64,000 nt of DNA from an uncultured archaeon (GTDB lineage: Archaea > Asgardarchaeota > Heimdallarchaeia > Heimdallarchaeales > Kariarchaeaceae): positions 28,801 to 92,800 of the forward strand of contig CAZRLL010000001.1 of assembly GCA_964600735.1 (NCBI GenBank). Reading direction: 5' to 3'. Every line of letters starts with the position of its first letter. The first letter of the stretch is position 1. The position numbers and the translations under genes were made by a program. Positions 8,208 to 63,351 of the stretch are shown one piece after another. The notes below the pieces were generated by a model, which saw nothing but the letters and a program-made list of their open reading frames with translations, searched no databases and was not told the origin of the DNA.

Positions 8208-9299
8208 TTAGGCAGTGAACTTATACGCGTGTTTGTCGTCAAGTGCAGCAACCTGACCGTAAAAACGGACTTTATGCTTTGCCTTGATGTCTTTATTGAA
8301 CTCGTCTTCATGACCCGGTTTTGAAGAGAAAGTCTGCAACGGCCATACCTCAGACCAAATGAAGTCTTCTGCAAAATCTCCCAGAAACCAAGTAGTCGCA
8401 CTTTGAACTGTAACATAAGGACTGGTAATTGGAGTAAAAGCACCCTTCCAAATATTTACAGCATTCTCAGTTCCCTCAGGTACGAGAGTACTTTTTTGCA
8501 TCTGAACAGCTTCAACCCACAGGTCGAAAGGAAAGATCGCGTAAACATTAGCCGGATCAATAGTAATGTAATCATCGTTCTCATCTTGCTGAATGTGCAT
8601 GAGCTTAAAAGCTTCTCTCAATCCAACCTCACCAAAGGGAGTAGTTGCTCTGGAGTTTTGTTCCCTATCTCCAACAGCAGTAGTCCTGTAGAACGCGGCC
8701 GCTACACCACTTGGCCTGTACACATTCGTATTTATATCTTGTACACCATTAACAATCAGTCTCTCTTTGTACTGCGCGGCCTTTTTCCCAATTCCTTTAG
8801 CACGAGCAATGATCTGATTAGTCTTATCAAAGTAGATCATTTCTTCCGTAATTGAGATAATCCGACCATATTTCTGGTGAGGTACAGTTACGAATTTCTC
8901 ACCAATCCCACTGTCATTATACGGAGCTCCCTGCTGGACTTCTTCCGGCATTTCAACCGCATTAAAACCCGCGTAAGTCTCAATTTCCATATTCGACTTA
9001 ACGGTATGAGTAAGCAATTTACCAATAGTCTTGACTGAGTTGTAAGCTTTAATAAGAGTCGCACTGATAAGTACCCCAGTAATTTTGGGGAACATGTCTG
9101 TAGAAACTGCTTCTGATATGTCTCTAACAAGGCCCGTTTGAGGATCTCGCTCAAAAGCCTCCCAACATTCCTTAAGAGAAAAATCGTTAGGATTCAATTC
9201 ACCCTTTTCAAGCATACCCTCAATGGCCTCTACGGTCCCGGCGTTGCCTAAAGACTCATGCATATCCCTGAGAGCTACACCTAATCTGTTTCTTATCAT
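8208..9299 (-). CDS. Major capsid protein (HK97-fold candidate)
   Basis: 363-aa ORF in the canonical position after the scaffold/protease and decoration genes. It is followed by a strong terminator, typical of highly expressed MCP genes. Sequence-level homology was not verified. Confidence 0.55.
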   Translation of the reverse strand: MIRNRLGVALRDMHESLGNAGTVEAIEGMLEKGELNPNDFSLKECWEAFERDPQTGLVRDISEAVSTDMFPKITGVLISATLIKAYNSVKTIGKLLTHTVKSNMEIETYAGFNAVEMPEEVQQGAPYNDSGIGEKFVTVPHQKYGRIISITEEMIYFDKTNQIIARAKGIGKKAAQYKERLIVNGVQDINTNVYRPSGVAAAFYRTTAVGDREQNSRATTPFGEVGLREAFKLMHIQQDENDDYITIDPANVYAIFPFDLWVEAVQMQKSTLVPEGTENAVNIWKGAFTPITSPYVTVQSATTWFLGDFAEDFIWSEVWPLQTFSSKPGHEDEFNKDIKAKHKVRFYGQVAALDDKHAYKFTA

Positions 9300-27002: not shown

Positions 27003-29296
27003 TTATCCTCCACTTTCTGCTCAACAAATGGAATACTAACAGAATAGTTGTCAACTCCCACACCTGGAGTTGTTATACGTCGCTCACACTTACAAGACTG
27101 GCAAGTAATAAGCCAGTAGTGTTCTTCCTTACTAATATAGAAAGACTCACAACCACAAAAACACTTTTCCTTTTTCATTGTCTTACTCCACTGATGATTT
27201 TCGGTTATTGCTCTCGCACTAGACTCCCAACCAGCCACAAAAAAAAAGCCCATAACGAGCCATCTAACCAATCGTCGTATTCTGCCCATTCTCGATGCTT
27301 TCTATACTCCCTCGTACCTTTGTAATTATTCCATGCGACTAACATTAGATGATCTTTTGGTAATGGTGCTTCAATAGGCATATTAATCCTCCTGCTTCTT
27401 CTCAGTACGAATGTCACCAGTATGGACGTCAGTTACTTCATGAGTATGAACTTCTTTAGTTTTGAAGATTCCACCGCTTCCATCTGGTATTAAAGGAGTT
27501 GTTTCTTTAGAAATCTGTCTTTTCTCGGACACCTTTTTAAAAATACCATAACTTGCTTCTAGTCTATCAAGCATTTTTTCCATATACGGCCATGATATCT
27601 TCCCGTCTCTAACAAGCCTTATACTCGTACTAAGACACTCTTCATAAAGTCTGTCTCTTAATTTTGACCATCGCTCAAACTTGTCCCCAAGTAGATGTCT
27701 GATTCTTTCCTGCACTAACCTATCTTCTAAATAAGCTAGAACCCTATCGGCAGGAATGTCAAGTGAAATCGCTACTTCTTCTGGGGAAAAACCAGAACGT
27801 ATTCTTTGGGCTACTTCTTCCATTTCACCAGTAAAAGTAACCGAACTTCGCTTCAACTTTTTCGTTCTAATAACCATCTCCATCCCATTGTATTTGAAAG
27901 TTTGATTCCCTTAACACTAAATTTTCACAAGTAGATAAAAGAATTCCAAATTCAGTCTTTAATAACCGTCGCATCTTCCCAGTGTCTCTCTTTACATGTA
28001 ACGCGACTCGTAGCTTGTCCTTATCAATACTAAGAACTATACATACCATATTAAGACTCATTACATCGCTTATGCTGTCTTCGTAAAACAACCAGTATTT
28101 AGCAGCGTTGTGTTCAACGGAACCTCTAGAGTAAAAGAAGTAGTCGTTAATTGTGTTAAGCAACATTGTTTCGTAAAGACTGACTACGCCTTCTGGCTTA
28201 ACATAATAGTCGCTAATACGGGTTCTCTTAGGTTGACTTTTTACCAACAATCTCATCAGTATACTTTCCTAGTGCAATCCAACAGTCTCCTTCATTATCA
28301 TAAGGGCCAACTCTGTCTTTTAAGTCATTCCAAAAATACCACTTTCCCTCATGCAAGTGTACTATTTTTTCATTCATATAATATCCCATCCTCTCAATAA
28401 AACTCTTCCTAACCTTTTCCAATCAGAATCAGCACATAGAGGACATTTACCTAAACTACCTAGTTCTTTCCAGGCTTTAAACTCTGGTGGGTTTTCCTCG
28501 CGTTTATTCTTGATCCAGGTAGAATACCATTTAGGATGGCCAAATGATACCCAGTACTTCTTCTTACACTTACTACACGACTTCCCTGCTACTATAACAG
28601 ACATTACTTTTCCTTTCCCTTTTTTATTCTCGTTCCATCAACTAAATCTTCAACTAACGGAATTAACAACGTGTCAGTATAAAATGTAACTGATGGCGCT
28701 TTTGGTCTGTTTAAATGGCGAGTTAACTGAGGTCCACCATGTCTAATGTACAACTCGTCTAGTAACCCATGATTTCTAACGTAAGCGTAATGAAGTTTCT
28801 CCCTGTATTCTTCTTTCATTTCTAAAGTTGTACAGGCATTCATTGCCATTGATAGGGTTTGAAGTTGGTAGTTGTTTTCTAATAAAGGAGCAACTTCTTC
28901 TGGTCTGAGTTTTATAGAAGCCTCGATGTAAAAACCCAACTTCCTACCACACCACCATTTAATACGGTCTATTAAACTGACAGTTTCCATTTAATTACTT
29001 CCCCCGATCTTCAAATCTTCTAATAACTTTGTCTATTTCTAACTCACCAACTACTTCTATGTCTTTCCAAGTTATATCAACGTATCCTGGCTTCTTACTC
29101 TTTGCGTATGTTCCTAAAAGCCAAGTATCTGATATTAACGTACAGTTCTTAGGTACATAATAAGCACTAAATTTCTGCCCATGAGCTTCGAAACTGTAAA
29201 CATGACGTTTCCACTTTTTACCTATAGTAGTCCCAGTAGGTACAGACATAGAATATTCTAGTAAGTCATCAAACTCTTCCTTAGTTAAGTAAACTT

Positions 29297-33221: not shown

Positions 33222-34049
33222 TCATTTGTACCTCTCTTGCTCATACCACCAGGACCTAACCCAACCTTGAAGGAATTTTGGTAACACATCAAACACTTCC
33301 ATCAAGTAGTAATATAACATTATCTTATAATACCATCTTCGCGACACTTCACTTTTCCACTTCCTAACAATCTTTCTAGACTCTTCCCTACGCTTATGAA
33401 CATCACCTATAACAGAGCCATAATGAATAGACAAAGTTCCACCAAGATTATCTGGTATGTAATGGAACTGGTACTTAGAAGCAACCTTCAACCACAAGTC
33501 CCAGTCGTGACTAATTTTAAACTTCCAGTCCATGGGACCAAACTCATTGTATACACTACTTCTTATTAACACAGAAGAAGTTGGGACGAAGTTCTTTCTA
33601 AGTAAAACTTCAAAAACTTCACCAGAAAAACAAGTTGACATCTTACTCCACAACTCAGACCTACCAACGTCAACATACTTTACTAGCATATTGTGGTAAG
33701 AAAAGACTTCTCCAGTTACTTCTAAGTACCAAACTTGCAATTTTAACTTCTCTGGCTCCCACAAGTCGTCGCTATCTAAAAATGCAAGATACTTCCCCTT
33801 AGCATTAGCACAACCTGTATTTCTAGGATGAACTGGGCACCCACTATTCCTTCCCATATCAATGTATCTAATTCTGCCATCACAGATTGTATGCGACGCT
33901 ACAACTTGTTTAGTGTTATCGGTAGACCCATCATCAACAACAATAATCTCTAAGTCCTTAAAAGTCTGCATTTGAACAGACTCTATTGCTATAACTAAAT
34001 CGTCTACCCTATTATACGTTGGTATTATAACAGATACTATTGGGTCCAT
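33222..34049 (-). CDS. Family 2 glycosyltransferase
   Basis: VSVIIPTYNRVDDL...EIIVVDDGSTDNT. Confidence 0.7.
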   Translation of the reverse strand: MDPIVSVIIPTYNRVDDLVIAIESVQMQTFKDLEIIVVDDGSTDNTKQVVASHTICDGRIRYIDMGRNSGCPVHPRNTGCANAKGKYLAFLDSDDLWEPEKLKLQVWYLEVTGEVFSYHNMLVKYVDVGRSELWSKMSTCFSGEVFEVLLRKNFVPTSSVLIRSSVYNEFGPMDWKFKISHDWDLWLKVASKYQFHYIPDNLGGTLSIHYGSVIGDVHKRREESRKIVRKWKSEVSRRWYYKIMLYYYLMEVFDVLPKFLQGWVRSWWYEQERYK

Positions 34050-35293
34050 AGATCGATATACCTCTCAATAATCTTGTCAGTAGAGTACTGATCAAGAAAA
34101 AGTTGTTTATTAGCAGCACCAAGACGCTTACGTTCACCAGCCTCCAGAAGTAGCCTAGAAACAAGAACCTTTAACCTTGAAACGTCTCCTGGATTAATGA
34201 GATAAGTAAAATCTGATTTGAACAGTTCCGGAATTCCACAGATATTAGACGCTACGATTGGCTTACCCATCATTAACCCTATTAAGATCACATTAGGAAA
34301 ATCTTCATCTCTAATACTTGGAACTAACAACACGTCACACGACTTAATTAAACTATAAGTGTCAAAGTCATCGTTTTCTTCTACCAGAACAAGACTAGTA
34401 GACGCTTCTGCTAACTTTTTTAAATTAGAACCTTCTGGGCCAGACCCACCAATAACAAGAACTCTTGGGTTATCACATTTTATTTTCCCGAAAGCCTCAA
34501 TCGCGTCCTTGAAGCCTTTCCTTTCTTCAAAGTTACCAACACAAAGAAACATAATGTCACTTTTCTTTATTGCTTTATCTAGTCCCCCTCGTAAAAGCCA
34601 AATAGAAGTACATTCCCTTGAAAGGACAGTATTTGGTATGACCTCCCAGTTTATAGTTACCCAGTTTTTGCCATTCGACGCGTTTTCTTTAACGATTATT
34701 GAAACCCACAAAAACTTACTTTGATCTCTACAATACTTAGATGCAGTAATAAATTTCGTTACACACTTCTTTACCAACCAAGTCATTGGTCTTTCCCACC
34801 ATCTATTTTTAGTTGTAGAGTTAATCATGTATGTTATCTTTGGGACTCCCATAAGGCGACCAGCAATAGCAGCACTATTACAGCTAGTAGCACCAGGATA
34901 CCCTCCGTTATTTATGTGCAACACATCGGGCCTCAATTGGCCTATCAGTTTGCACAAAACGATCCCCTCATAAAGCATAAAGAAATAACCCAGTGCCATA
35001 ACTGGTCTAAAATAAAGCCTGATTTTGTATAAGAAAGAGATAGGGAGGCGAAGTGGAAAAACGTCACGTTTACTACTATCTATTCTTTCGTTTGCTGACT
35101 TGCAAAAGATACCTGTCACCCATTCGTTAAAACCCTTCACATACTCTTTACTATATCGATAACTAAGCGTTAAGTCAAACTCGTTGTTTAGTACTTTGTT
35201 CTGTAAAAAGATACCTGGCATGTTTTCGCAACCAGCCCAACTACTATTATCGCTGTGTATATGTAGTTTCTTTTTCATTAACGAAAACCTCAT
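34037..35293 (-). CDS. GT-B glycosyltransferase (GT4-like)
   Basis: C-terminal FEERKGF...EDFPNV..GLMMGKPIVASNICGIPEL resembles the GT4 EX7E region. Confidence 0.6.
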   Translation of the reverse strand: MRFSLMKKKLHIHSDNSSWAGCENMPGIFLQNKVLNNEFDLTLSYRYSKEYVKGFNEWVTGIFCKSANERIDSSKRDVFPLRLPISFLYKIRLYFRPVMALGYFFMLYEGIVLCKLIGQLRPDVLHINNGGYPGATSCNSAAIAGRLMGVPKITYMINSTTKNRWWERPMTWLVKKCVTKFITASKYCRDQSKFLWVSIIVKENASNGKNWVTINWEVIPNTVLSRECTSIWLLRGGLDKAIKKSDIMFLCVGNFEERKGFKDAIEAFGKIKCDNPRVLVIGGSGPEGSNLKKLAEASTSLVLVEENDDFDTYSLIKSCDVLLVPSIRDEDFPNVILIGLMMGKPIVASNICGIPELFKSDFTYLINPGDVSRLKVLVSRLLLEAGERKRLGAANKQLFLDQYSTDKIIERYIDLWTQ

Positions 35294-35985: not shown

Positions 35986-37899
35986 TTATCTCCACCCCAC
36001 TTTGCTAAAATGGTCACACATACTAGTAACTACCCAACAACCATGAGCACAATAACATTTGTCCCTTTTTATATACTTTAACTCTTGCTTCATAGATGAC
36101 CCATTTAGAGCTTTAGTAACGTCGTAGTTGTAATACGCTAAGTCAGTCACTGTATCTCTCATCTCACACGCTACCAACTTACCGTCCGGGTAAATAGTAA
36201 ATGCCTTTTTACCAGCCAAACAAGGAAAGTCCCAAGGTTTACCTATAGTAGAATTAAGATACTGGACGTTAAATCTTCTCTTAGTTAGTAAATAATAAGA
36301 AAAGTAGTTCTTCTTTATAACTTCTAGAAGCCCTTTATACATTCCATCAAGGGAAACGTGGTACTTAAAACCTCTAAAAGACCTTTCAACCTCAAAGTTG
36401 TGATAATCTAGACTAGGGAAAGCGTACGCCATCTCTTTAGCGAAGTCAACTAACTTGTCCATAGTTCCTGGTGTTATCAAAGTATTGATACATACGTTTA
36501 AACCTTTATCTGTAGGTTTAAATGACAATAAAACCCTTAAAGTATCCATTGCCCTACTATATGACTTGTCATTCCCCCTCATTTCATTATGCGTTTTCTC
36601 GAATCCATCTAAAGATACAGATACAGTAATAGTTTTATGCTTAGCGACTAAAATCTTAGCCATCATGCCCTTTACTGCTAAAGGTCGCATACCGTTAGTA
36701 TTTATCCAAACATTGCTCTTTTCAGAAAACATATTAATAGCGTCTTGTATTCTATCATATAGGAAAGGTTCGCCACCCGTTAGTAGTACGTTGTTTGGAG
36801 TAACACTACGATGAATAGATCTTACGTTGACAATATCCATATCACCATACGTATGCAACTTACCCTTGTAGAAACAAGCCTTACATGACAAATTGCATTT
36901 GTCAGTAAGGAACAGTATCATTAAGTCTACACTACTTTCGTTTTTCCTAGAAGGTAGCCAGTCCTCGTAGTAGTGGTAGAAGTTCTTTGCTCTTACTATA
37001 AGGTGAGCTTTTACTTTTCCAGGGAGAAGTAAATGCCGCTTTATTTTTTGGCGTAACGTAGGATTAGCATTAAATTCTTTATAAGATAAAGATTGCCCCC
37101 TTCCCTTCACAAAACTAAAACATCTATCCCTTGCTTGACCCAGAGCAACGTCTGCGCTCCAATCACCACCAGGAGTAAGTAGTGCTTTAGCAGTGTAGCC
37201 TTCTTTATGAATACGATAGTTAGTAAGTCGATCCTTCAACATATAAAAAACGTAGTAGTACGAACATTTAAGTAAGAATACCCAATCTTCATGCTGATAT
37301 AACAAGTCTTCATCAAACCCACCAACAGCTTCAACTACCTCTCTTTTAACCATGATAGAAGATGAACAAATAGGATCACCATCAGACAAGATACCAAAGT
37401 GAGTACGCTTACGTAACTGTGCTAACAACTTTTCATTCCAAAACGAATCCCAGTAGCCTTTTGCCGGACTAGTTCCAAAAATTCCTCTACCAGGTTTCCC
37501 TACCCATGTCGCAGTTTCTTGGCTAATTATAGTATTAACTCCAGTATGTACTACGCCAGCGTCTTGCTCTTCCATCGCCAGTACTTGTTTCTCTAGCTTA
37601 GTGGGTTCCCAGTAGTCGTCTGCATCTAGATAGGCTATATAGTCGCCAGTACTTATTCTAAAACCCAAGTTTCTACTCTTACTAACACCTAAGTTTTCAA
37701 AATTCTCTATTACTCGTAACTTCTCTTTTAAACTATCTTCATATCTACCTACTACTACCAAACCACCATCAGACGAAAAGTCGTCTACTACAATAATCTC
37801 CCAGTTAGTATAAGTCTGAGATAATACACTGTCTATTGCTTGACCTATGTACCTCTCGTAGTTGTAGAGTGGAATTATAACAGATACTTTACTCAACAT
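35986..37899 (-). CDS. Fusion of a GT2 glycosyltransferase (N-terminus) and a radical SAM/SPASM-like domain (C-terminus)
   Basis: N-terminus VSVIIPLYNYERYIGQAIDSVLSQTY...EIIVVDDFSSDGG. C-half has CNLSCKAC (CxxxCxxC) and further Cys clusters. Confidence 0.6.
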   Translation of the reverse strand: MLSKVSVIIPLYNYERYIGQAIDSVLSQTYTNWEIIVVDDFSSDGGLVVVGRYEDSLKEKLRVIENFENLGVSKSRNLGFRISTGDYIAYLDADDYWEPTKLEKQVLAMEEQDAGVVHTGVNTIISQETATWVGKPGRGIFGTSPAKGYWDSFWNEKLLAQLRKRTHFGILSDGDPICSSSIMVKREVVEAVGGFDEDLLYQHEDWVFLLKCSYYYVFYMLKDRLTNYRIHKEGYTAKALLTPGGDWSADVALGQARDRCFSFVKGRGQSLSYKEFNANPTLRQKIKRHLLLPGKVKAHLIVRAKNFYHYYEDWLPSRKNESSVDLMILFLTDKCNLSCKACFYKGKLHTYGDMDIVNVRSIHRSVTPNNVLLTGGEPFLYDRIQDAINMFSEKSNVWINTNGMRPLAVKGMMAKILVAKHKTITVSVSLDGFEKTHNEMRGNDKSYSRAMDTLRVLLSFKPTDKGLNVCINTLITPGTMDKLVDFAKEMAYAFPSLDYHNFEVERSFRGFKYHVSLDGMYKGLLEVIKKNYFSYYLLTKRRFNVQYLNSTIGKPWDFPCLAGKKAFTIYPDGKLVACEMRDTVTDLAYYNYDVTKALNGSSMKQELKYIKRDKCYCAHGCWVVTSMCDHFSKVGWR

Positions 37900-54868: not shown

Positions 54869-56005
54869 TTAAAGAACTTCACATTTAAATCCATTTTCAG
54901 CCGCGTGTTTTCTAAAAAATTTCCGCTCACCTTCTCTGCTCGCAACAAAGTGATCGTAAACTTTTAGCCTTCTCCAATCTGTAATCCAAGAGTTATACCC
55001 TTCCCAACCATGCTTTACGTAATACGTAGGTATACCAAGTTGTTTGGCAGCGATTAACAACCCATACTGGTAAAGCCTATTACGCCTCGTAAAAATAACA
55101 GCAGTCTTATAGCGTGGAAATTTCTTTAAATATTCAAAATAAAATTTGGAATGCTCAACAATCTTTGGAACAACACATTTCAGATAGTGGTCTAGCTGTG
55201 GACCTACTACTACCTGAACTAACTCTAAATCAACGCCGCAAAAATCAGATAAGTTACTACATAAGCTATCTACATCCCAGTGAAAGGAACCAGTACGATT
55301 TACTATTACATCAACGATTGGAACGACCTTACACTTGCGAAATTGAAACTTCATATCTCTTAACGTCGCCATTGTACTAGCAAACAAATACGTCCAACCA
55401 CTAGGCTTCCCGAACCAGATAAACCTACAGTACCTAAACCAATCGTAAACATTCCTTATAAATCCTATATCCCTCCAGCTAGTAACCTTCTTAATACCAA
55501 CATCCGGAACATGAATTAAAGTAGCCTCAATAGACTCCGCAATTCTATAAAAAATAGATCTCTGAAAAAACAGGAGTTCGTCGTTTGGTTGTCCACTTTT
55601 ATTTCTATTAGCGAAGTAATAAATTTTACTTGGATTCTCTTCTTTTAAAATACGCTCAAACTGTACTGCTTTTCTAACAAAAGAGTCAACCATCCCTTTT
55701 AGTACAGCAACACAGTAAGTAGACATTGGGATGTAGAAAGAAGAAACTTCTGGGTACAACCTTGCAGTAGTAGACTCTACAAGGTTAAGCCAGTTCTCAA
55801 AACTAGAAGTATACTTATCTGTTTCTTCCCATACTAAATAGTCTTCCGGAATCTTGTAGGTAAGCCCTAGTTCATCTAACTCGTACATAGCCAGTGGAGA
55901 CAAAGCGACAAGTTGAAGATTCCCATCCAAACCAGCTAGAAGTGGTTCAACCTCTACACTAAAGTCCTCAACAAAGACTAACGAATTATTAGTTGTCATC
56001 GCCAA
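54869..56005 (-). CDS. Hypothetical protein, possibly a GT-B-like sugar/nonulosonic-acid transferase
   Basis: 378-aa ORF inside the cluster. No firm motif. Confidence 0.25.
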   Translation of the reverse strand: MAMTTNNSLVFVEDFSVEVEPLLAGLDGNLQLVALSPLAMYELDELGLTYKIPEDYLVWEETDKYTSSFENWLNLVESTTARLYPEVSSFYIPMSTYCVAVLKGMVDSFVRKAVQFERILKEENPSKIYYFANRNKSGQPNDELLFFQRSIFYRIAESIEATLIHVPDVGIKKVTSWRDIGFIRNVYDWFRYCRFIWFGKPSGWTYLFASTMATLRDMKFQFRKCKVVPIVDVIVNRTGSFHWDVDSLCSNLSDFCGVDLELVQVVVGPQLDHYLKCVVPKIVEHSKFYFEYLKKFPRYKTAVIFTRRNRLYQYGLLIAAKQLGIPTYYVKHGWEGYNSWITDWRRLKVYDHFVASREGERKFFRKHAAENGFKCEVL

Positions 56006-56523
56006 TCATCCTCTTTGTATGTATAAAATTTACTACTAAACCAACCACCCTCCATATAAACAGTGTCTGAAATAGTAGCTTCACATTTAAAGCTACATCC
56101 TTCAAATAAGCGAATACCTGGCACATTAAAAGCATATATTTCAGCATATATACGATGAAGCCCTAAAACGTCAAAGGCTTTTATTTTCAAGTACCTCAAT
56201 ACCTCACTCCCAATTCCAGTTCTCCTTCTGAAAGAATCTCCAATGTAAATACTAACTTCGGCGCTCCTGTTGATAAGATCAATGTAACACAAACCGCAGA
56301 CCCCAACCAGTTCAGCATGCTCATTAATATCAGACCTAGAAGAGACAATTCCATACATCAAGTTTTTATCAAGATCTAAATTATCAAACCAACTCTTATG
56401 CTCTTTCCAAGAAAGTTCCCTCCACTGCCTAGTCCTCGACATAATAAGTGGATCATTTCGCCACTTAAATAGAGTTAGTAAGTCTTCTTCATCAATGGGT
56501 CTCAGCACGACATATAAAGTCAT
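55996..56523 (-). CDS. GNAT N-acetyltransferase (PseH-like)
   Basis: RRRTGIGSEVL..KAFDVLGLHRIYAEI acetyl-CoA-binding motif. Adjacent to the aminotransferase. Confidence 0.55.
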   Translation of the reverse strand: MTLYVVLRPIDEEDLLTLFKWRNDPLIMSRTRQWRELSWKEHKSWFDNLDLDKNLMYGIVSSRSDINEHAELVGVCGLCYIDLINRSAEVSIYIGDSFRRRTGIGSEVLRYLKIKAFDVLGLHRIYAEIYAFNVPGIRLFEGCSFKCEATISDTVYMEGGWFSSKFYTYKEDDWR

Positions 56524-57704
56524 AATAAGTAATCTCCAGTCTCTAGAAGTTCTTTAGTAGCAGATACGACATGGTTAACATCTTTAGTCGTCATACCTGG
56601 TCCTAAAGGAAGACTAACAGTACGTTTTCCAATCCATTCTGCATTATTAAACATTCCGGAGTGCCACCCCAAGTTCCGATAACAAGGATGTAAATTAACT
56701 GGCTTATAATGAATGCCACAATAAACCTGTTTTTCCCGCATTTTAGCAATAAAGTCGTCACGGTTACCAAGGCAGATTGTGTACAGATGATATCCATGAA
56801 CGTACCCAACATTAGGATTCAAAGATGGTCTAATTCCAGGATAGATTCCATTAAAAATTTCACGATTACAGAAATTCTTAAAGGCAAGATTATATTGATT
56901 CCAAATGTACTTTCTAGCCTCCCAGTTAGCTTCAACGTTCCTTAGTTGAGACAAAGCGACTACCGCCTCAAAATCAGTGCAATTAGCTTTATAACCGCAA
57001 TCAACAAGACTATAAGTGCCATTACTGTTAACCCTCTCTGAAGCCTCAGCGTCCATCCCATGAATACGTAACCTCCTCAACTTTTCTGCTTTCTCTTCAT
57101 CGTTCGTAACTATCATACCCATCTCTGGAGCAGCAATATTTTTAGTAGGATTAAAAGAGTAACATCCCATGTCCCCAAACGTCCCGACATGTTGCCTATG
57201 AAACTGAGTCTCTACCGCATGAGCACAATCTTCTACTATCCTAGCTCCAGTCTCTTTACTTAACTCAACAAACTCATTCATGTTACAAGGAAAGCCAGCA
57301 AAGTGGACTGGAAGTAAAACATCGTCAGGACCTGGTTTAGGGAAAATGTTACTCGGGTTCATACATTGAGTATCAAAGTTGATGTCAGCCAGGAAAACTC
57401 CCCTAGCACCAGCGTGGATAGCAGAGTTAATAGTAGAACAAAACGTTAAAGGGCTTGTGTAGACATAATGATCTCTAACATCTAAAACTATCAGGCTCAA
57501 AAACAAAGACATAGAACAACTATTAGTAGCAATAGCATATTTAGCCCCAACGTACTCTGCGAACTCTTTTTCGAGATTCTTAGTGTATTCACCCATAGTC
57601 CACCATCCAGAAGTCAAGACAGTCATCAAGTCAAGCAGAACACGCTGCGTATTTATATTAGGTTTTGCTAAAGGAATCATGTACCAGTACCTGCGCGATA
57701 CCAA
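56520..57704 (-). CDS. DegT/DnrJ/EryC1 PLP-dependent sugar aminotransferase (PseC-like)
   Basis: MIPLAKPNINTQRVLLDLMTVLTSGWWTMGEYTKNLEKEFAEYVGAKYAIATNSCS. Confidence 0.8.
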   Translation of the reverse strand: MVSRRYWYMIPLAKPNINTQRVLLDLMTVLTSGWWTMGEYTKNLEKEFAEYVGAKYAIATNSCSMSLFLSLIVLDVRDHYVYTSPLTFCSTINSAIHAGARGVFLADINFDTQCMNPSNIFPKPGPDDVLLPVHFAGFPCNMNEFVELSKETGARIVEDCAHAVETQFHRQHVGTFGDMGCYSFNPTKNIAAPEMGMIVTNDEEKAEKLRRLRIHGMDAEASERVNSNGTYSLVDCGYKANCTDFEAVVALSQLRNVEANWEARKYIWNQYNLAFKNFCNREIFNGIYPGIRPSLNPNVGYVHGYHLYTICLGNRDDFIAKMREKQVYCGIHYKPVNLHPCYRNLGWHSGMFNNAEWIGKRTVSLPLGPGMTTKDVNHVVSATKELLETGDYLL

Positions 57705-58530
57705 CTTTTGTATAAAGTCCCAGATTTAAGAACTCTATCTATTTGACGCTTACTCCAACTCTTAGGAAAGTCATCCCAGTGACTTCGTACAACTTCCCCG
57801 TGAGTTTGGTTAATAAGAGCCTTTAAAGCACGACCAGCGGCTTTATTCTTCCCGGCAGACTCTTCAAATTTTTCAGTAGTACTACAAATAGCAAATCCGC
57901 TAGCAATTGTGTAGTTACCACCAACTCTGCTCCTAAGGTAACAGGTAACCGAAACTCCATAATCAATCTCAAAAGCAACAACCACGTTACGTTCTACTAA
58001 CCTAGCTACTAACTTCTTATTCAACCCCCTCATCCACTTATTCCTTTTATTTGAAGACATTTTAATCCTCCACATAAACACTTTGGCTTTTACGCCATTC
58101 ACATTCATCATTTACTGCTTCAAAGTCCCGATGAGAGTCAACAAAAAAATCTTGATCTAGCAACCAGTTTAAATAAGTATTCGGGACTGCTGCTAAACAC
58201 CGCTCACCTGACTTACCAAGACCATACTTCCCAAAACTTAGAATATGTTCACTATGAGAACCAACCATGATACCTCTCCATTAACAGGAATCTGACTAAA
58301 AAGACATACATTCTGGATATAACCCAGAAGGATTTCTTTTAGAGTTCATCGTTTGCCCCTTAATTAAATTAAAAGTGGAAAGGCAAGTCGGTATCTTTCG
58401 CCCGCTCAACCGATAGTTTACGTGAATGTGTTGGAGCTTGCCAATCCACTCATTTGATAAATTCCCCCGCCCTGGATAAGAACAGCAGCAGAATATTCTT
58501 GACTTGCCACTTCCACTACTCGCAGCACAA

Positions 58531-58831: not shown

Positions 58832-59512
58832 TTACCTAACCTCTCTTACATCACTAACACCATGTTTATCTTGCGTAACTTCAAACACCTTATCTGCACT
58901 ATCTATCATATGTGGTAAGTGAGATATCATTAGTATCTGGAGATTATGGTCTAGTGTTATTTGCTTAATCATTTCAGAACATCTTCCTTGAAGATTAGAT
59001 GAAACATACTTAAAAGGCTCATCTAATAACAAAAAAGGACGAGTACGACCAAAACTCCATATAGCAATAAAAATCCCAAACGATGCAACGTCAAGAGGTC
59101 CACCTCCAGCACTAGACATTGGATTAAACCTATCAAAACCCTTCGTGAAGTAAAAGTCGCACTCAGTTACATTACGCCTTTCAACAAAGTCTAACTCAAC
59201 CCCATAAGGATCGTCAAATATAGCAGATTCTGCTAAACCCACAACACCAGATATATGGTATTCAACAACACTTTGAGTTTCACTGGCAACCTTTTGTACG
59301 ATGACTCTGGCTTTTCCAGCATCACTAATTACCTTTTCCAAATCCTTTATCTCTCTTTCTTTTGCATCTATCTCTTCTAACAAAGATTCCCTTTTTACTT
59401 TAGCCTTAAGTACCGCATCCCTAGCTTCTAAGAATTTATTACTAGAAGCAAGAACGTCTGAATTCATACTATAAACTTTGTTACTAGAGGTCATATTCTT
59501 CTTCCAACTCAC
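58832..59512 (-). CDS. Rad50/SbcC-like ATPase, C-terminal half (signature/Walker B/H-loop)
   Basis: Coiled-coil N-part, then LLLDEPF (Walker B), D-loop and ISH (H-loop). Confidence 0.6.
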   Translation of the reverse strand: MSWKKNMTSSNKVYSMNSDVLASSNKFLEARDAVLKAKVKRESLLEEIDAKEREIKDLEKVISDAGKARVIVQKVASETQSVVEYHISGVVGLAESAIFDDPYGVELDFVERRNVTECDFYFTKGFDRFNPMSSAGGGPLDVASFGIFIAIWSFGRTRPFLLLDEPFKYVSSNLQGRCSEMIKQITLDHNLQILMISHLPHMIDSADKVFEVTQDKHGVSDVREVR

Positions 59513-59759
59513 TAAATATCTTATCTATTCTTCTGTTTCTTAGGGCAACCCGCTCGTCAATATTTTTACACCTACTTTTAGAAGCCTCGATACTCTTACA
59601 CTTGTACTCCCTTCTAAGTCTCTCTAAAACATTCTCTTGCTTCCCAGTAGCAACAAGCTTCTTTTCCCTTCTCTCTTCTAAAGTAGCCCTCAGCTTATTA
59701 ACCCGGCGAAGTTTCCTTTCCAACTCAAGCTCATCTGAATCCATAGTTCTCATTACCAA
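59484..59759 (-). CDS. Small coiled-coil protein between the sbcD and sbcC C-half genes
   Basis: Charged heptad-like 91-aa ORF. Confidence 0.3.
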   Translation of the reverse strand: MVMRTMDSDELELERKLRRVNKLRATLEERREKKLVATGKQENVLERLRREYKCKSIEASKSRCKNIDERVALRNRRIDKIFSELEEEYDL

Positions 59760-60721
59760 CCGTCTCCTTCAAGTTCCCCAAACTTCTTTACTCCATCATC
59801 AATTATCTTCCTTACACCTTTTGGTACTTTCATTTGGTCTAATCTAGTATACAAGTTTTTCAAAAAATCTACCCCGACTTTTTTCGATTTTGAAATTGAA
59901 CGTATAAACAAGTCAAGATCTTTTTTCTTTTCCAACTCACGCTCTGCGTAGTCAATAGCAAATACCGCCTCAGCTGGAGCTATATTAGTAAGCCTTCTTC
60001 TTACAATAGACCTAGAATCTGATTCGTAAATGTACGAGACTGGTTTATGGTCAACTTGATCAATATTTGCTCTCATCAAGCTACCACAATTTACAACATA
60101 CCGGCTAGACGAATCTTTAAAAATAAGTGACTTATGATTGTCTCCACATACAACAAGATCGTAGCTATTCTCTTCCAACAAAGACGAAGCAGTTACAAAG
60201 TCAGTTTGACCTGGCCATTGAAGGTTAGTATCTGCAGTAACCATCTTATGGATAAGAAGTACGTTAATAGTATCATCAGCAGAGTCGACATCGACATAGA
60301 ATACGTCGTCACCCCACGAACACCCATAAATAACGATTGGAGCATGAGCACTAGGATCTCTACCCCGAACACATATACCATTTCTACTAGCAACTTCTAC
60401 AACTCCCGCTGCTTCTAAAACCGCTAGAGGAATATTGTCAATATTAGTTGACTGATATCTAAGATCGTGTTGACCCCTGACGCACAAAATCTTTACTTCA
60501 TATCTCTTAAACAACTCTATGTACCTTCTCATAGTGTCAAAAGAGGGATGGCAACTATCAAAGAAGTCACCAGGTTGAAGTAAATACGCACAACCCTCGT
60601 CTACTGCAGTAGCCAACAACCATTCAACTTTCTTTTCTTGTGCTAAAGCATAATCGATATCTATACGACTTCTTGGCCGTTGAAACCTTAACTGCCAATC
60701 ACCAGTACATAAGAATCTCAT
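59753..60721 (-). CDS. sbcD: Mre11/SbcD-like calcineurin-fold nuclease
   Basis: MRFLCTGDWQLRF (motif I), QPGDFFD (motif II), VRGQHDL (motif III, GNHD-like). The start was trimmed to MRFLC. Confidence 0.65.
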   Translation of the reverse strand: MRFLCTGDWQLRFQRPRSRIDIDYALAQEKKVEWLLATAVDEGCAYLLQPGDFFDSCHPSFDTMRRYIELFKRYEVKILCVRGQHDLRYQSTNIDNIPLAVLEAAGVVEVASRNGICVRGRDPSAHAPIVIYGCSWGDDVFYVDVDSADDTINVLLIHKMVTADTNLQWPGQTDFVTASSLLEENSYDLVVCGDNHKSLIFKDSSSRYVVNCGSLMRANIDQVDHKPVSYIYESDSRSIVRRRLTNIAPAEAVFAIDYAERELEKKKDLDLFIRSISKSKKVGVDFLKNLYTRLDQMKVPKGVRKIIDDGVKKFGELEGDGW

Positions 60722-60889
60722 AATGCTACCTGCATTCTTTAGTATGTAGATGGGGATAATACTGATACGAATAGCATGAACAACTCCTATACCTATTAAG
60801 ATATGGACTACTCCCACTATCCATTAGACTACCGCGAAGGATACTACAACCAGGCAACAACACAAACAACCCTATGAGCACTATGGCTT

Positions 60890-61960
60890 TCATATGCTAC
60901 GTAGACATAGTGGGCAAATTCCAGAACCCATTTCCTTTTTATATTGCTTTTCCAATACTTCTATCTCTCTATTTAAACCTGTTATCTCAGCAGAAAGAGC
61001 GCCATGCTCATTTATTAACCTACCAAACTCCTCTCTACTAACCCTGACCTTCTTCTGCTTACGAATCTCTAGAGCTAGTTCATCTAGAATTTCCTTTGCT
61101 TCAATCCCTTCATTACACTTCTCGATCTCAAGTCCTATAGATTCAAAGTTGCCAATTAATTCAATAATCATATTTCGCGTAGCAAGGTCATTCATTACAT
61201 CGTCTGCAAGTTGAAATAAATCGCCAGTCTTTTCTTCGACTTCATCAAGCATGGCATACCTATTCAACTCAGCCTGAAGGATAAAGTAGTCGTCACGTAA
61301 CTGATATATGTCCGTTCTCTCTCTTCTATAAACAGCGCGTTGATTAAGATACGTTTCCAAGAGACCAACAGCCTTTACATGTTCGTCAACGTTCTTGTAT
61401 CTGTTTGCCTCTGCTTTTAATTCTACTATTTCTTTTTTTCTAGTTCTAATCCCAGCATCAGCAGTCCTATCGGTACTATTAATATGAGAAAGAAGAAAGT
61501 CTATCGATTCGAGTCCTGTAACAGAATTTAAAACCTTAGCAGCAGCCGCTGGAGTATCCTGTAACAAAAAGTACCTGTCATGTTGTAGTTGGACGTTATA
61601 TTCAGATAAGTTTACAGCATCGCTAATTTCTTTTGGCACGCCCTTTCCAACTGCTTTGAAGACTTTACGATTAAGTCTGTATCTATTATTCTGACTTGCT
61701 GTACCAGGAACTCTTTCCCTTGAAAAAACATTACCTTTGTCATCTTCAACAACGAACTTAGTAACATCCTTTTTATCAGCAAAAGTAGAACGAAAACTAA
61801 AGTCTTGAAGTGAATTTTTTAGGAACCAAGTAAAGGCCCGACCTACAGAACTCTTTCCTTTATCGCTCTCACCAATTATAACGTTAAGTCCCGGATGAAG
61901 AACAAACTCACCTTCCTCCCAAGATTGGAAGTACGCTATTTTTAAACGTTTAAGCATCAC
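60890..61960 (-). CDS. Rad50/SbcC-like ATPase, N-terminal half ending at a CxxC zinc hook
   Basis: Walker A GESDKGKSS, a long coiled coil, and the C-terminal ...SGICPLCLRSI. Confidence 0.6.
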   Translation of the reverse strand: MMLKRLKIAYFQSWEEGEFVLHPGLNVIIGESDKGKSSVGRAFTWFLKNSLQDFSFRSTFADKKDVTKFVVEDDKGNVFSRERVPGTASQNNRYRLNRKVFKAVGKGVPKEISDAVNLSEYNVQLQHDRYFLLQDTPAAAAKVLNSVTGLESIDFLLSHINSTDRTADAGIRTRKKEIVELKAEANRYKNVDEHVKAVGLLETYLNQRAVYRRERTDIYQLRDDYFILQAELNRYAMLDEVEEKTGDLFQLADDVMNDLATRNMIIELIGNFESIGLEIEKCNEGIEAKEILDELALEIRKQKKVRVSREEFGRLINEHGALSAEITGLNREIEVLEKQYKKEMGSGICPLCLRSI

Positions 61961-62271: not shown

Positions 62272-63351
62272 TTACTCGCCATTGCTTTCCGCTTCATCTC
62301 TTCTATACCTGCCTTTCCTAACCTTCGTTTTGTACACTTTCCTATAAAGACTACAAGTTAGGTCTAATAAATCTTCTTCCAAATCATTCCTTTCAACAAA
62401 CCCAATAAACTTCCTCAGCGTGTAGACCGGGCTATGATCATAAAGTCCAAACCACTTACTATCTTTACCGTCAACATCTAAACCAGTAGTATAAGTTTTT
62501 AACCACAACGCGCAGTCAAGAATGTCATCTATTCCATGACCATACTGAATAGAAAAATCTGATTCTCTAAAAGCGTCGTCTTCACTATTCTTTTCAACAC
62601 GGCCATGTATCCGGATTCCAACAACCTTAGTTATCTCCTTCCCAGCAGGAGAATCTGTATCAGTTATCTTTCCCTGCTTTGGCACAGAAAACCTAACTCT
62701 AACAGACGGCCAATGAATCATAGCATTACCACCAGGTACAATTTTCTTCGGGCCAAACGACTTACCAACAGCGTCAATTAACTGATTTGAAAACACAACT
62801 GCCGTTCCGCTGCCACTGTACACCCTATCCCTTAAATACCTCATATTCTTTTGAAGCGCTTTTGCTTTTGCTTGACCCATTTTATCAGATGCTTCTACTT
62901 CAACCCTACTATACAACGCTGCTATGGGATCGACTATATACAAGCATTTCTCCCCAGACTTTAACTTGTCTAACTTCTGAAACATAGTTTCAAAGCACCC
63001 TTCAATAGTAGAACTACCAGGATCTAAATAAACAAACCTTTTGTCTGACAACGACAAGCCAAAAGTATCAATACGACTCAAGTCCCATCTCCTTTCTATA
63101 TCATCTACTACTACAAGATCATATCCCTTTCTTAAAGCGTCGCCACACAACTCACCACATATATACGTTTTACCAGTCGCTCCACCCCCAGAGAACTCAG
63201 TTATCCTACCAGATGGAATACCACCATAGTTAGACTTATTACAACTAACAGACAAGTCAAGGGGTGTAGACCCAGTACTTAAGTAGTCAGTAACAACAGA
63301 TGTTCTTTTAAGAATTGATATACCTTCTTTTTTAGATGCTTTCCTCTTCAC
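62272..63351 (-). CDS. RecA-superfamily ATPase (RecA/UvsX/Sak4-like recombinase candidate)
   Basis: GGIPSGRITEFSGGGATGKTYICGEL resembles the RecA Walker-A region [21 protein letters not shown]. Confidence 0.45.
   Translation of the reverse strand: MKRKASKKEGISILKRTSVVTDYLSTGSTPLDLSVSCNKSNYGGIPSGRITEFSGGGATGKTYICGELCGDALRKGYDLVVVDDIERRWDLSRIDTFGLSLSDKRFVYLDPGSSTIEGCFETMFQKLDKLKSGEKCLYIVDPIAALYSRVEVEASDKMGQAKAKALQKNMRYLRDRVYSGSGTAVVFSNQLIDAVGKSFGPKKIVPGGNAMIHWPSVRVRFSVPKQGKITDTDSPAGKEITKVVGIRIHGRVEKNSEDDAFRESDFSIQYGHGIDDILDCALWLKTYTTGLDVDGKDSKWFGLYDHSPVYTLRKFIGFVERNDLEEDLLDLTCSLYRKVYKTKVRKGRYRRDEAESNGE

Follow-up and report, generated by a model that had tools for sequence, protein, structure and literature searches.

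The contig CAZRLL010000001.1 of an assembly assigned to an uncultured archaeon of the Kariarchaeaceae (GenBank GCA_964600735.1) carries a four-gene cassette within its positions 28,801 to 92,800, a stretch of 64,000 nucleotides (nt) hereafter called the window. The cassette very probably encodes a tailed-phage Mre11-Rad50 (SbcCD) break-processing complex in which the ATPase, Rad50, is made as three polypeptides that assemble non-covalently. According to the list of open reading frames (ORFs) of the window, the four genes are co-directional on the minus strand, in the order N-half, SbcD, small ORF and C-half. The Rad50/SbcC N-half (window positions 60890–61957; 355 amino acids, aa) would provide ATPase lobe I, with Walker A and Q-loop, a single long ascending coiled-coil helix, and a CxxC zinc hook on its free C-terminus. 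The SbcD/Mre11-type nuclease (59753–60721; 322 aa) is followed by a small two-helix protein (59484–59753; 89 aa from its ATG), and the C-half (58832–59494; 220 aa) would contribute lobe II (signature motif, Walker B and H-loop) together with the basal part of the descending helix. In the proposed complex, two N-halves would dimerise via Zn(Cys)4 at the hook, like ordinary Rad50; lobes I and II would form composite ATP sites, with an SbcD dimer docked on the head. As an obligatory third subunit, the small protein (about 80 aa in related loci) would most likely lie against the hook-proximal part of the N-half helix. Together with the RecA/UvsX-like recombinase encoded upstream, such a complex would resect DNA ends, as T4 gp46/gp47 do with UvsX.

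Identity of the Rad50 halves and the nuclease

The N-half matched the Pfam families AAA_23, AAA_15 and SMC_N as well as phrog_16465. AAA_23 was the only one of the Rad50-type models (AAA_23, SMC_N and NCBIfam Rad50) to score above its curated cut-off (31 vs. 27 bits). Scores for SMC_N (20.1 and 23.7 bits vs. 40) and NCBIfam Rad50 (33 vs. 700) stayed below theirs, and no NCBIfam model reached its cut-off, as is expected because the proteins are of half length and divergent. Residues 164–355 align to positions 262–445 of the 878 in the archaeal Rad50 model PRK03918, and the N-half therefore stops at the midpoint of Rad50, where the hook lies. Its AlphaFold model (predicted local distance difference test, pLDDT, 86.5) consists of a beta-rich P-loop lobe, one helix (residues 150–343) and a small CPLC tip, and the best Foldseek matches of this model were N fragments of Pyrococcus Rad50, e.g., 1ii8_A and 3qkr_A. 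Among 80 homologs, G29 and K35 of the Walker A motif (P-loop GESDKGKS, residues 29–36; 61850–61873, minus strand) and Q125 of the Q-loop (QLQHD, residues 123–127; 61577–61591, minus strand) are invariant, as is C348 of the motif CPLC (residues 348–351; 60905–60916, minus strand), in which P349 and C351 are at least 90% conserved. CPLC is a predicted zinc hook, at which zinc would be bound, and it stands four residues ahead of the stop codon, the protein ending in GICPLCLRSI.

This termination at the hook recurs in thousands of stand-alone proteins. A search with the N-half profile returned 7,656 clusters (50% identity) at E ≤ 1e-30, of which the best 150 are all stand-alone proteins of 300–409 aa. 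Of 153 N-half cluster representatives, 150 carry a CxxC motif no more than 30 residues from the C-terminus (median distance six residues), and in 120 of those 150 it takes the form CPLC; a Walker B-like motif was found in none of the 153. The N-half of the window is identical to P0001 (355 aa), a protein recorded as hypothetical and attributed to the metagenome-assembled genome of a “Planctomycetes bacterium,” where it is encoded on a 111-kb contig.

The C-half begins at an ATG that is also the start used by close homologs. It matched the C-terminal part of Pfam SMC_N and the entire 211-position profile of phrog_15167, and each of its 99 homologs is 190–247 aa in length. When a profile of 32 C-half homologs was compared with the PDB, C-terminal fragments of Pyrococcus Rad50 came first (3qkr_B, E = 4e-12). 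The AlphaFold model (pLDDT 91.3) shows a long helix (residues 18–98) followed by an alpha/beta lobe, and Foldseek matched it to C fragments of SMC and Rad50 heads. The motifs are cleanly partitioned: Walker A and Q-loop occur only in the N-half, and the signature motif, Walker B and H-loop only in the C-half. In the numbering of a 226-aa form of the C-half, G136 and G138 of the ABC signature motif SSAGGG (59099–59116, minus strand) are invariant and G137 nearly so; D164 of FLLLDEP, which comprises Walker B and the catalytic Glu (59015–59035, minus strand), is invariant, and E165 and P166 are at least 90% conserved, as is H198 of the H-loop ISHL (58916–58927, minus strand). Stand-alone C-halves were also found in Tunturiibacter phage Tunturi_5 and Microbacterium phage Magritte. 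A separate observation concerns mad3, a component of the MADS defence system in PADLOC, to which the C-half aligned at model positions 168–350 of 374 (E = 9e-15); the match suggests that mad3 is a short, unsplit relative of the C-half's type of ATPase.

The preliminary description of this DNA had seen in the locus a Rad50/SbcC ATPase whose two halves, separated at the CxxC hook, lie on either side of sbcD. That reading holds, since the four ORFs were located and motifs, profiles and folds agree. The end of the N-half was also placed correctly at the hook, given the helix and CPLC tip of the model and stand-alone homologs that end at the same point, and the C-half is, as proposed there, a separate gene with Walker B and H-loop, whose profile and model match C-terminal head fragments of Rad50/SMC proteins.

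The nuclease gene matched Pfam Metallophos (39.7 bits, cut-off 21.5) and the SbcD-like family phrog_100. Its true start is at MRFLCTGDW; the 354-aa ORF of the program-made list begins too early. In an alignment of its motifs with Pyrococcus Mre11 and 69 relatives, the equivalents of D8, D49, H85, H173 and H208 are invariant in all 69 relatives. The metal-binding motifs of the window protein (GDWQ, GDFFD, GQHD, H and GDNH) are nevertheless variant ones compared with Mre11. N84 is replaced by Q in 40 of the 69 relatives and H206 by D in 58, and the window carries both substitutions (GQHD and GDNH). Motif I (60692–60703, minus strand) reads GDWQ instead of the GDxH of relatives, an H10Q replacement that only the closest relative of the window shares with it (2 of 69).

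An SMC-like ABC ATPase encoded beside a nuclease could also belong to a phage-borne defence or counter-defence system resembling Lamassu, MADS or Septu. PADLOC models do match weakly, namely mad3 to the C-half (9e-15) and, to the P-loop region of the N-half, LmuB (2.3e-8) and PtuA/GajA. Most of the N-half matches, however, cover only the generic ABC P-loop region, though that of LmuB spans residues 5–354, and neither SbcD nor the small protein matched any PADLOC model. The best matches in both sequence and fold are to Rad50, the partner is an Mre11-type phosphoesterase, and the cassette adjoins RecA/UvsX-like and weakly RusA-like genes inside phage genomes. A defence function is accordingly very improbable, and a role of the Mre11-Rad50 type is preferred.

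Conservation of the split

The genes of the cassette are closely spaced. A TAATG is shared by the stop codon of SbcD and the start of the small ORF, and the ATG of the C-half lies 8 nt ahead of the stop codon of the small ORF, so that these two genes overlap in different frames. The N-half and SbcD are separated by 168 nt. A scan for promoters and terminators found nothing above chance within the cassette.

The overlap of the small ORF with the C-half could, taken alone, resemble a frameshift, and a superficially similar picture would arise from one sbcC gene that had decayed to a pseudogene or been disrupted by errors of sequencing or assembly. There is next to no probability that this is the explanation. 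A complete SbcD gene lies between the pieces, their termini are conserved, the small protein is always free in the database, up to 3.3 kb of other genes separate the pieces in relatives, and all of 114 independent loci, as well as cultured phages, show identical breaks.

These loci were collected by protein-level searches, a DNA-level search of phage genomes with the 3.9-kb region having given no match. Scanning with the C-half alignment yielded confirmed loci in IMG/VR (130), metagenomes (336) and GTDB genomes (8), the last all on contigs of metagenome-assembled genomes from unrelated taxa. Gene order was counted in the fetched phage and metagenome loci that hold all four genes (n = 114). Every one of them has the order N-half, SbcD, small gene, C-half on one strand, and together they represent 97 distinct protein triplets. 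This uniformity, like that of the terminal CxxC of the N-halves, goes far beyond chance. The additional genes found between the pieces of some relatives, amounting to at most 3.3 kb, include those for HNH, NUMOD4 and AP2 homing endonucleases and thymidylate-synthase-like, endolysin-like and methyltransferase proteins; the pieces are therefore separate translation units.

The gene junctions of the cassette appear to be landing sites for mobile elements. Homing-endonuclease genes lie between the N-half and the next piece in loci L006 (5639–6466) and L051 (6332–6865) and in Bacillus phage vB_BboS-125 (L003, 2584–3156). Two further small genes were noted at or near these junctions. A 55-aa ORF of the window (60726–60893, minus strand) spans the gap between the N-half and SbcD, its ATG overlapping the stop codon of the N-half. 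It starts with MKAIVLIGLFVLLPGC, which resembles a lipoprotein signal with a lipobox, and seems to be unannotated in the source record; it had no Pfam match and no counterpart in related loci. A protein of about 65 aa with the motif VPNSYL.WL.DQEF, likewise without a Pfam match, recurs near the cassette. In the window it is encoded downstream of the C-half (58062–58268, minus strand), and in three relatives between the N-half and SbcD (L006, 6463–6657; L013, 6436–6657; L024, 6464–6658).

Translated searches of phage genomes identified the same three Rad50 pieces in the Bacillus phages phBC6A51, vB_BboS-125 and 0305phi8-36. In phBC6A51, the N-half BC1852 ends with GVCPLCESPMSFDHSH at its stop codon, BC1854 has 77 aa, the C-half BC1855 has 211 aa, and SbcD (BC1857) is encoded further downstream. 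In vB_BboS-125, the N-half gp32 ends with GICPLCEQTHKGGGC at its stop codon and is followed by an AP2-domain gene, gp34 (78 aa) and gp35 (211 aa). In 0305phi8-36 (L002, 1406–5442), gp8 is a fusion of an Mre11 domain with an N-half whose end reads KCPTCNQ and some further residues, and is accompanied by gp7 (92 aa) and gp5 (236 aa). All three phages thus resemble the window in an N-half ending with CPLC or CPTC, a helical protein of 77–92 aa with a similar central turn, and a C-half of 211–236 aa. They differ from it in sequence (about 23–31% protein identity), in their longer N-halves (471–518 aa) and in the position of SbcD, which lies downstream of the C-half in phBC6A51 and is fused in front of the N-half in 0305phi8-36. 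Because both breaks are shared by phages in which SbcD is placed elsewhere, neither the break at the hook nor the second one depends on the position of SbcD, and both predate its location between the halves.

The split is ancient, extends over thousands of protein clusters and is common in uncultured phages. The pieces are already present in public genomes, and in PHROGs as separate families. Records of the Bacillus phages label them individually as “Exonuclease SbcC,” “chromosome segregation ATPase” and “hypothetical protein.” Full-text literature searches found no published description of a split Rad50/SbcC, which does not exclude a prior one, and the locus of the window is, as far as found, one more member of a large undescribed family.

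Against this background, several points of the preliminary description can be settled or refined. Its suggestion that homologs be checked for the same split is answered by the agreement of all 114 four-gene loci, and conservation in independent contigs leaves no room for the frameshift that it asked to have excluded. The 91-aa ORF that it listed is indeed present between SbcD and the C-half; however, that length assumes a TTG start, the protein has 89 aa from its ATG, and it is a conserved third piece and not an incidental ORF. A Rad50 of two polypeptides must consequently give way to one of three, the small ORF being a universal member. The architecture is unusual by comparison with textbook Rad50, but it is common in uncultured phages and present in sequenced Bacillus phages. 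Likewise, members of the environmental clade regularly have Mre11 between the halves, which the Bacillus phages do not.

The small protein and the coiled-coil arm

The small protein of the window is identical to P0279, and a profile built from ORFs directly upstream of the C-half in other loci matched it with E = 3.6e-12. In an iterative search starting from the window's ORF, 75 of 76 loci passed a position filter for a homolog located after SbcD and ahead of the C-half; the one other locus has a homolog too, which overlaps with the SbcD end. Relative to SbcD, the small gene lies at −85 to +2,293 nt, but throughout it adjoins the C-half. Its alignment is free of gaps over about 75 columns and shows two heptad-spaced helices of about 33 aa joined by a (W/F)GCx(S/T) turn. 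All 36 matches of a database search with the small-protein profile are free proteins (44–89 aa, the best 34 having 77–89 aa), and none is fused to any other protein. Long C-halves that seemed to be small-protein fusions in four loci proved to be extensions introduced by ORF calling. Profile-profile comparison of the small protein with the N-terminus of the C-half gave a probability of 10.7%, which is not meaningful. The small protein is a conserved third member of the system and is proposed to be a segment of the Rad50 arm or a subunit associated with the hook.

Whereas the other pieces are of constant size, the N-half varies in length from 298 to 415 aa across loci and reaches 518 aa in phBC6A51. 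The variation occurs in units of about 47 aa, as seen in the consensus of 80 sequences, and the same spacing is the top parallel covariation offset. The units were located at N-half residues ~180–345 (window ~60920–61420), each starting with a helix-cap-like “hydrophobic-D-x-x-E”; the window has about three to four, relatives have fewer or more, and phBC6A51 has about seven. A self-BLAST for internal repeats in the N-half helix was negative. The possibility that this helix folds back on itself was rejected, as no intra-chain antiparallel covariation ridge was present at the expected position.

That a head can fold from two chains follows from the structures matched above, as the entries 1f2t, 1f2u, 1ii8, 3qkr and 1xew are all two-chain heads built from separate N and C fragments. 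The ascending helix (N-half 150–343) and the descending helix (C-half 18–98) were predicted in separate models; their lengths are mismatched, and their pairing was approached through covariation, calculated as mutual information with average-product correction from 65–85 paired sequences. The control came out as expected, with the arms paired antiparallel at their base, N-half residues 150–213 running against C-half residues 75–12 (residue sum 219–227), with about 3% of permutations reaching the observed value. The strongest signal between the N-half and the small protein had a residue sum of 408 and paired small-protein residues 63–88 with N-half residues 345–320, just below the hook, with contributions every three to four residues. 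Should this signal be real, the descending partner beside the hook would be the small protein's second helix, with the conserved turn at the hook itself. Covariation lends weak backing to the pairing of the arms and to this position of the small protein.

Several findings weigh against the assembly proposed here. The signal between the N-half and the small protein was reached by 0 of 60, 0 of 40 and 5 of 100 permutations, the last in the largest set, and came top in only 22% of bootstraps. The arms differ in length, the N-half helix having about 190 aa as against a combined length of about 140 aa for the C-half helix and the small protein. Nor does the variation in N-half length carry over to its partners, as the small protein stays at about 80 aa and the C-half at about 203 aa (r = 0.002). 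Finally, the Gln that replaces the motif I His, a metal ligand, might weaken the predicted nuclease of the window.

The mismatch in arm length would fit a different arrangement, in which the halves do not rebuild one ATPase, the N-half being a non-catalytic hook or tether scaffold and the C-half a separate factor. The two halves are nonetheless complementary, with catalytic residues conserved in both, and they co-occur strictly. In the covariation control they pair as expected at the coiled-coil base, and the two-chain heads in the PDB show that such halves can assemble. Separate functions for the halves are thus highly unlikely, and a composite ATPase, with the predicted activity shared between lobes I and II, remains the favoured interpretation.

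The place of the small protein is less certain. Instead of forming a segment of the arm, it may play an accessory part, for example by clamping the hook, by linking SbcD to Rad50 as an adaptor or by acting as a regulator, leaving the hook-proximal helix of the N-half unpaired or paired with a second N-half. Such a role is possible, though rather unlikely. It would agree with the constant length of the small protein despite the ~47-aa-unit variation of the N-half, and with its build of two ~33-aa helices and a conserved turn in place of one long helix; covariation, moreover, puts the second helix and not the first by the hook, which misfits a simple continuation of the chain after the hook. On the other side, both helices have heptad spacing, and the small gene stands directly before the C-half even in Bacillus phages with SbcD elsewhere. 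The N-half, small protein and C-half lack long terminal linkers, and their total of about 640 aa is in keeping with the size of phage Rad50, T4 gp46 having about 560 aa. In SbcD/Mre11 nucleases, a C-terminal helix-loop-helix binds the base of the Rad50 coiled coil; the last ~60 residues of SbcD look helical by eye and would give the nuclease a C-terminal helical region of its own.

In a further arrangement, possible but less likely than not, the three pieces would be more than a nicked Rad50: the hook would be on a free C-terminus, the small protein would be a dedicated hook-proximal subunit with its (W/F)GCx(S/T) turn at the hook, and the stalk above the C-half would be a rod of variable length, made of ~47-aa units, to which a descending helix is paired in part at most. 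It is a matter of speculation that N-half residues ~215–320 are covered by pairing of the two N-halves with each other.

Phage setting, known systems and significance

The contig is a phage genome and probably a mis-binned viral contig. Every ORF longer than 150 aa in the window is on the minus strand, apart from two nested in longer minus-strand ORFs, and GC skew is negative throughout. Structural genes include those for a portal (18713–20257), a capsid/protease-like protein (8208–9299) and a 1,842-aa head-morphogenesis fusion protein (13185–18713, minus strand). The first ~500 residues of the fusion protein match head-morphogenesis, minor head and head-maturation-protease families, and this N-terminal part is presumably SPP1 gp7-like; its remaining ~1,300 residues had no family match in the search run. 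Genes for sugar modification, all on the minus strand, encode a DegT/DnrJ/EryC1 aminotransferase (56520–57704), a GNAT acetyltransferase (55996–56523), a glycosyltransferase fused to a radical SAM domain (35986–37899) and a second glycosyltransferase (34037–35293).

Upstream of the cassette lies a RecA/UvsX-like recombinase gene (62272–63351, minus strand; Pfam RecA 8.8e-23, phrog_97 UvsX-like 6.8e-40), after which a 115-aa protein with a weak RusA-like match is encoded. Homologs of the recombinase were found in 64 related loci, and the best 40 matches are all encoded on the strand of the N-half, 1–4 kb upstream of that gene. In T4, gp46/gp47 act with UvsX in recombination-dependent replication and repair. 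The cassette most likely belongs to a phage recombination module, with end resection for recombination-dependent replication and repair as its probable function.

Compared with the known Mre11-Rad50/SbcCD complexes (E. coli SbcCD, T4 gp47-gp46 and the archaeal complexes), the cassette shares the division of motifs over two lobes, the long helix leading to a CPxCG-type hook motif, an adjacent calcineurin-type nuclease, a link to a RecA-family recombinase, and the fold and profile matches. In contrast to them, it has Rad50 as three proteins with the nuclease gene between the pieces, with breaks right after the hook and within the descending arm; its N-half helix is composed of a variable number of ~47-aa units, and its SbcD is short (about 300 aa), with Q for N and D for H in the metal-binding motifs. 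The two-chain Rad50/SMC heads of the PDB likewise form one ABC head from separate N and C fragments, but these are laboratory constructs that lack coiled coil and hook, whereas the split in phages is natural and keeps both.

Phage genes in pieces are known from the T4 topoisomerase genes 39 and 60 and from the nrdA gene of Aeromonas phage Aeh1, which is split by a homing endonuclease gene. As with these, a one-chain enzyme would here be encoded by separate genes and assembled post-translationally, and homing endonuclease genes lie between the pieces in some relatives of the cassette. To our knowledge, the T4 and Aeh1 splits are confined to few phages, unlike the ancient Rad50 split with its thousands of protein clusters, and the gene that intervenes in the minimal cassette is that of a functional partner, SbcD, and not a mobile element. 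Fusion, the opposite of splitting, has been described for Mre11 and Rad50 in, among others, Mimivirus R555 and gp8 of 0305phi8-36, in the latter of which one NTPase segment was not observed, and a separate C-half gene was not identified (Yoshida et al., 2011; PMC3175470). The missing segment is supplied by gp5, a gene of its own, and the small helical protein is gp7, which accounts for the gap noted in 2011; gp8 is itself an instance of nuclease and N-half acting together.

The three-piece organisation also explains the “truncated SbcC,” the orphan “chromosome segregation ATPase” and the small hypothetical protein in many phage genomes, and annotation pipelines could give each of the three its name. 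The cassette also offers biochemists and structural biologists a set of subunits that are already separable. The role of the Rad50 coiled coils and zinc hook is debated, and they have been viewed as a tether, a gate or a conformational transmitter. A natural and widespread cut, placed after the hook and in the descending arm, indicates that continuity of the chain through the apex has been dispensable in evolution. If the arrangement of the arm suggested here is true, Mre11-Rad50 would work without a covalently continuous, fully two-stranded coiled coil, and this would bear on models in which the arms pass ATP-driven movements between head and hook.

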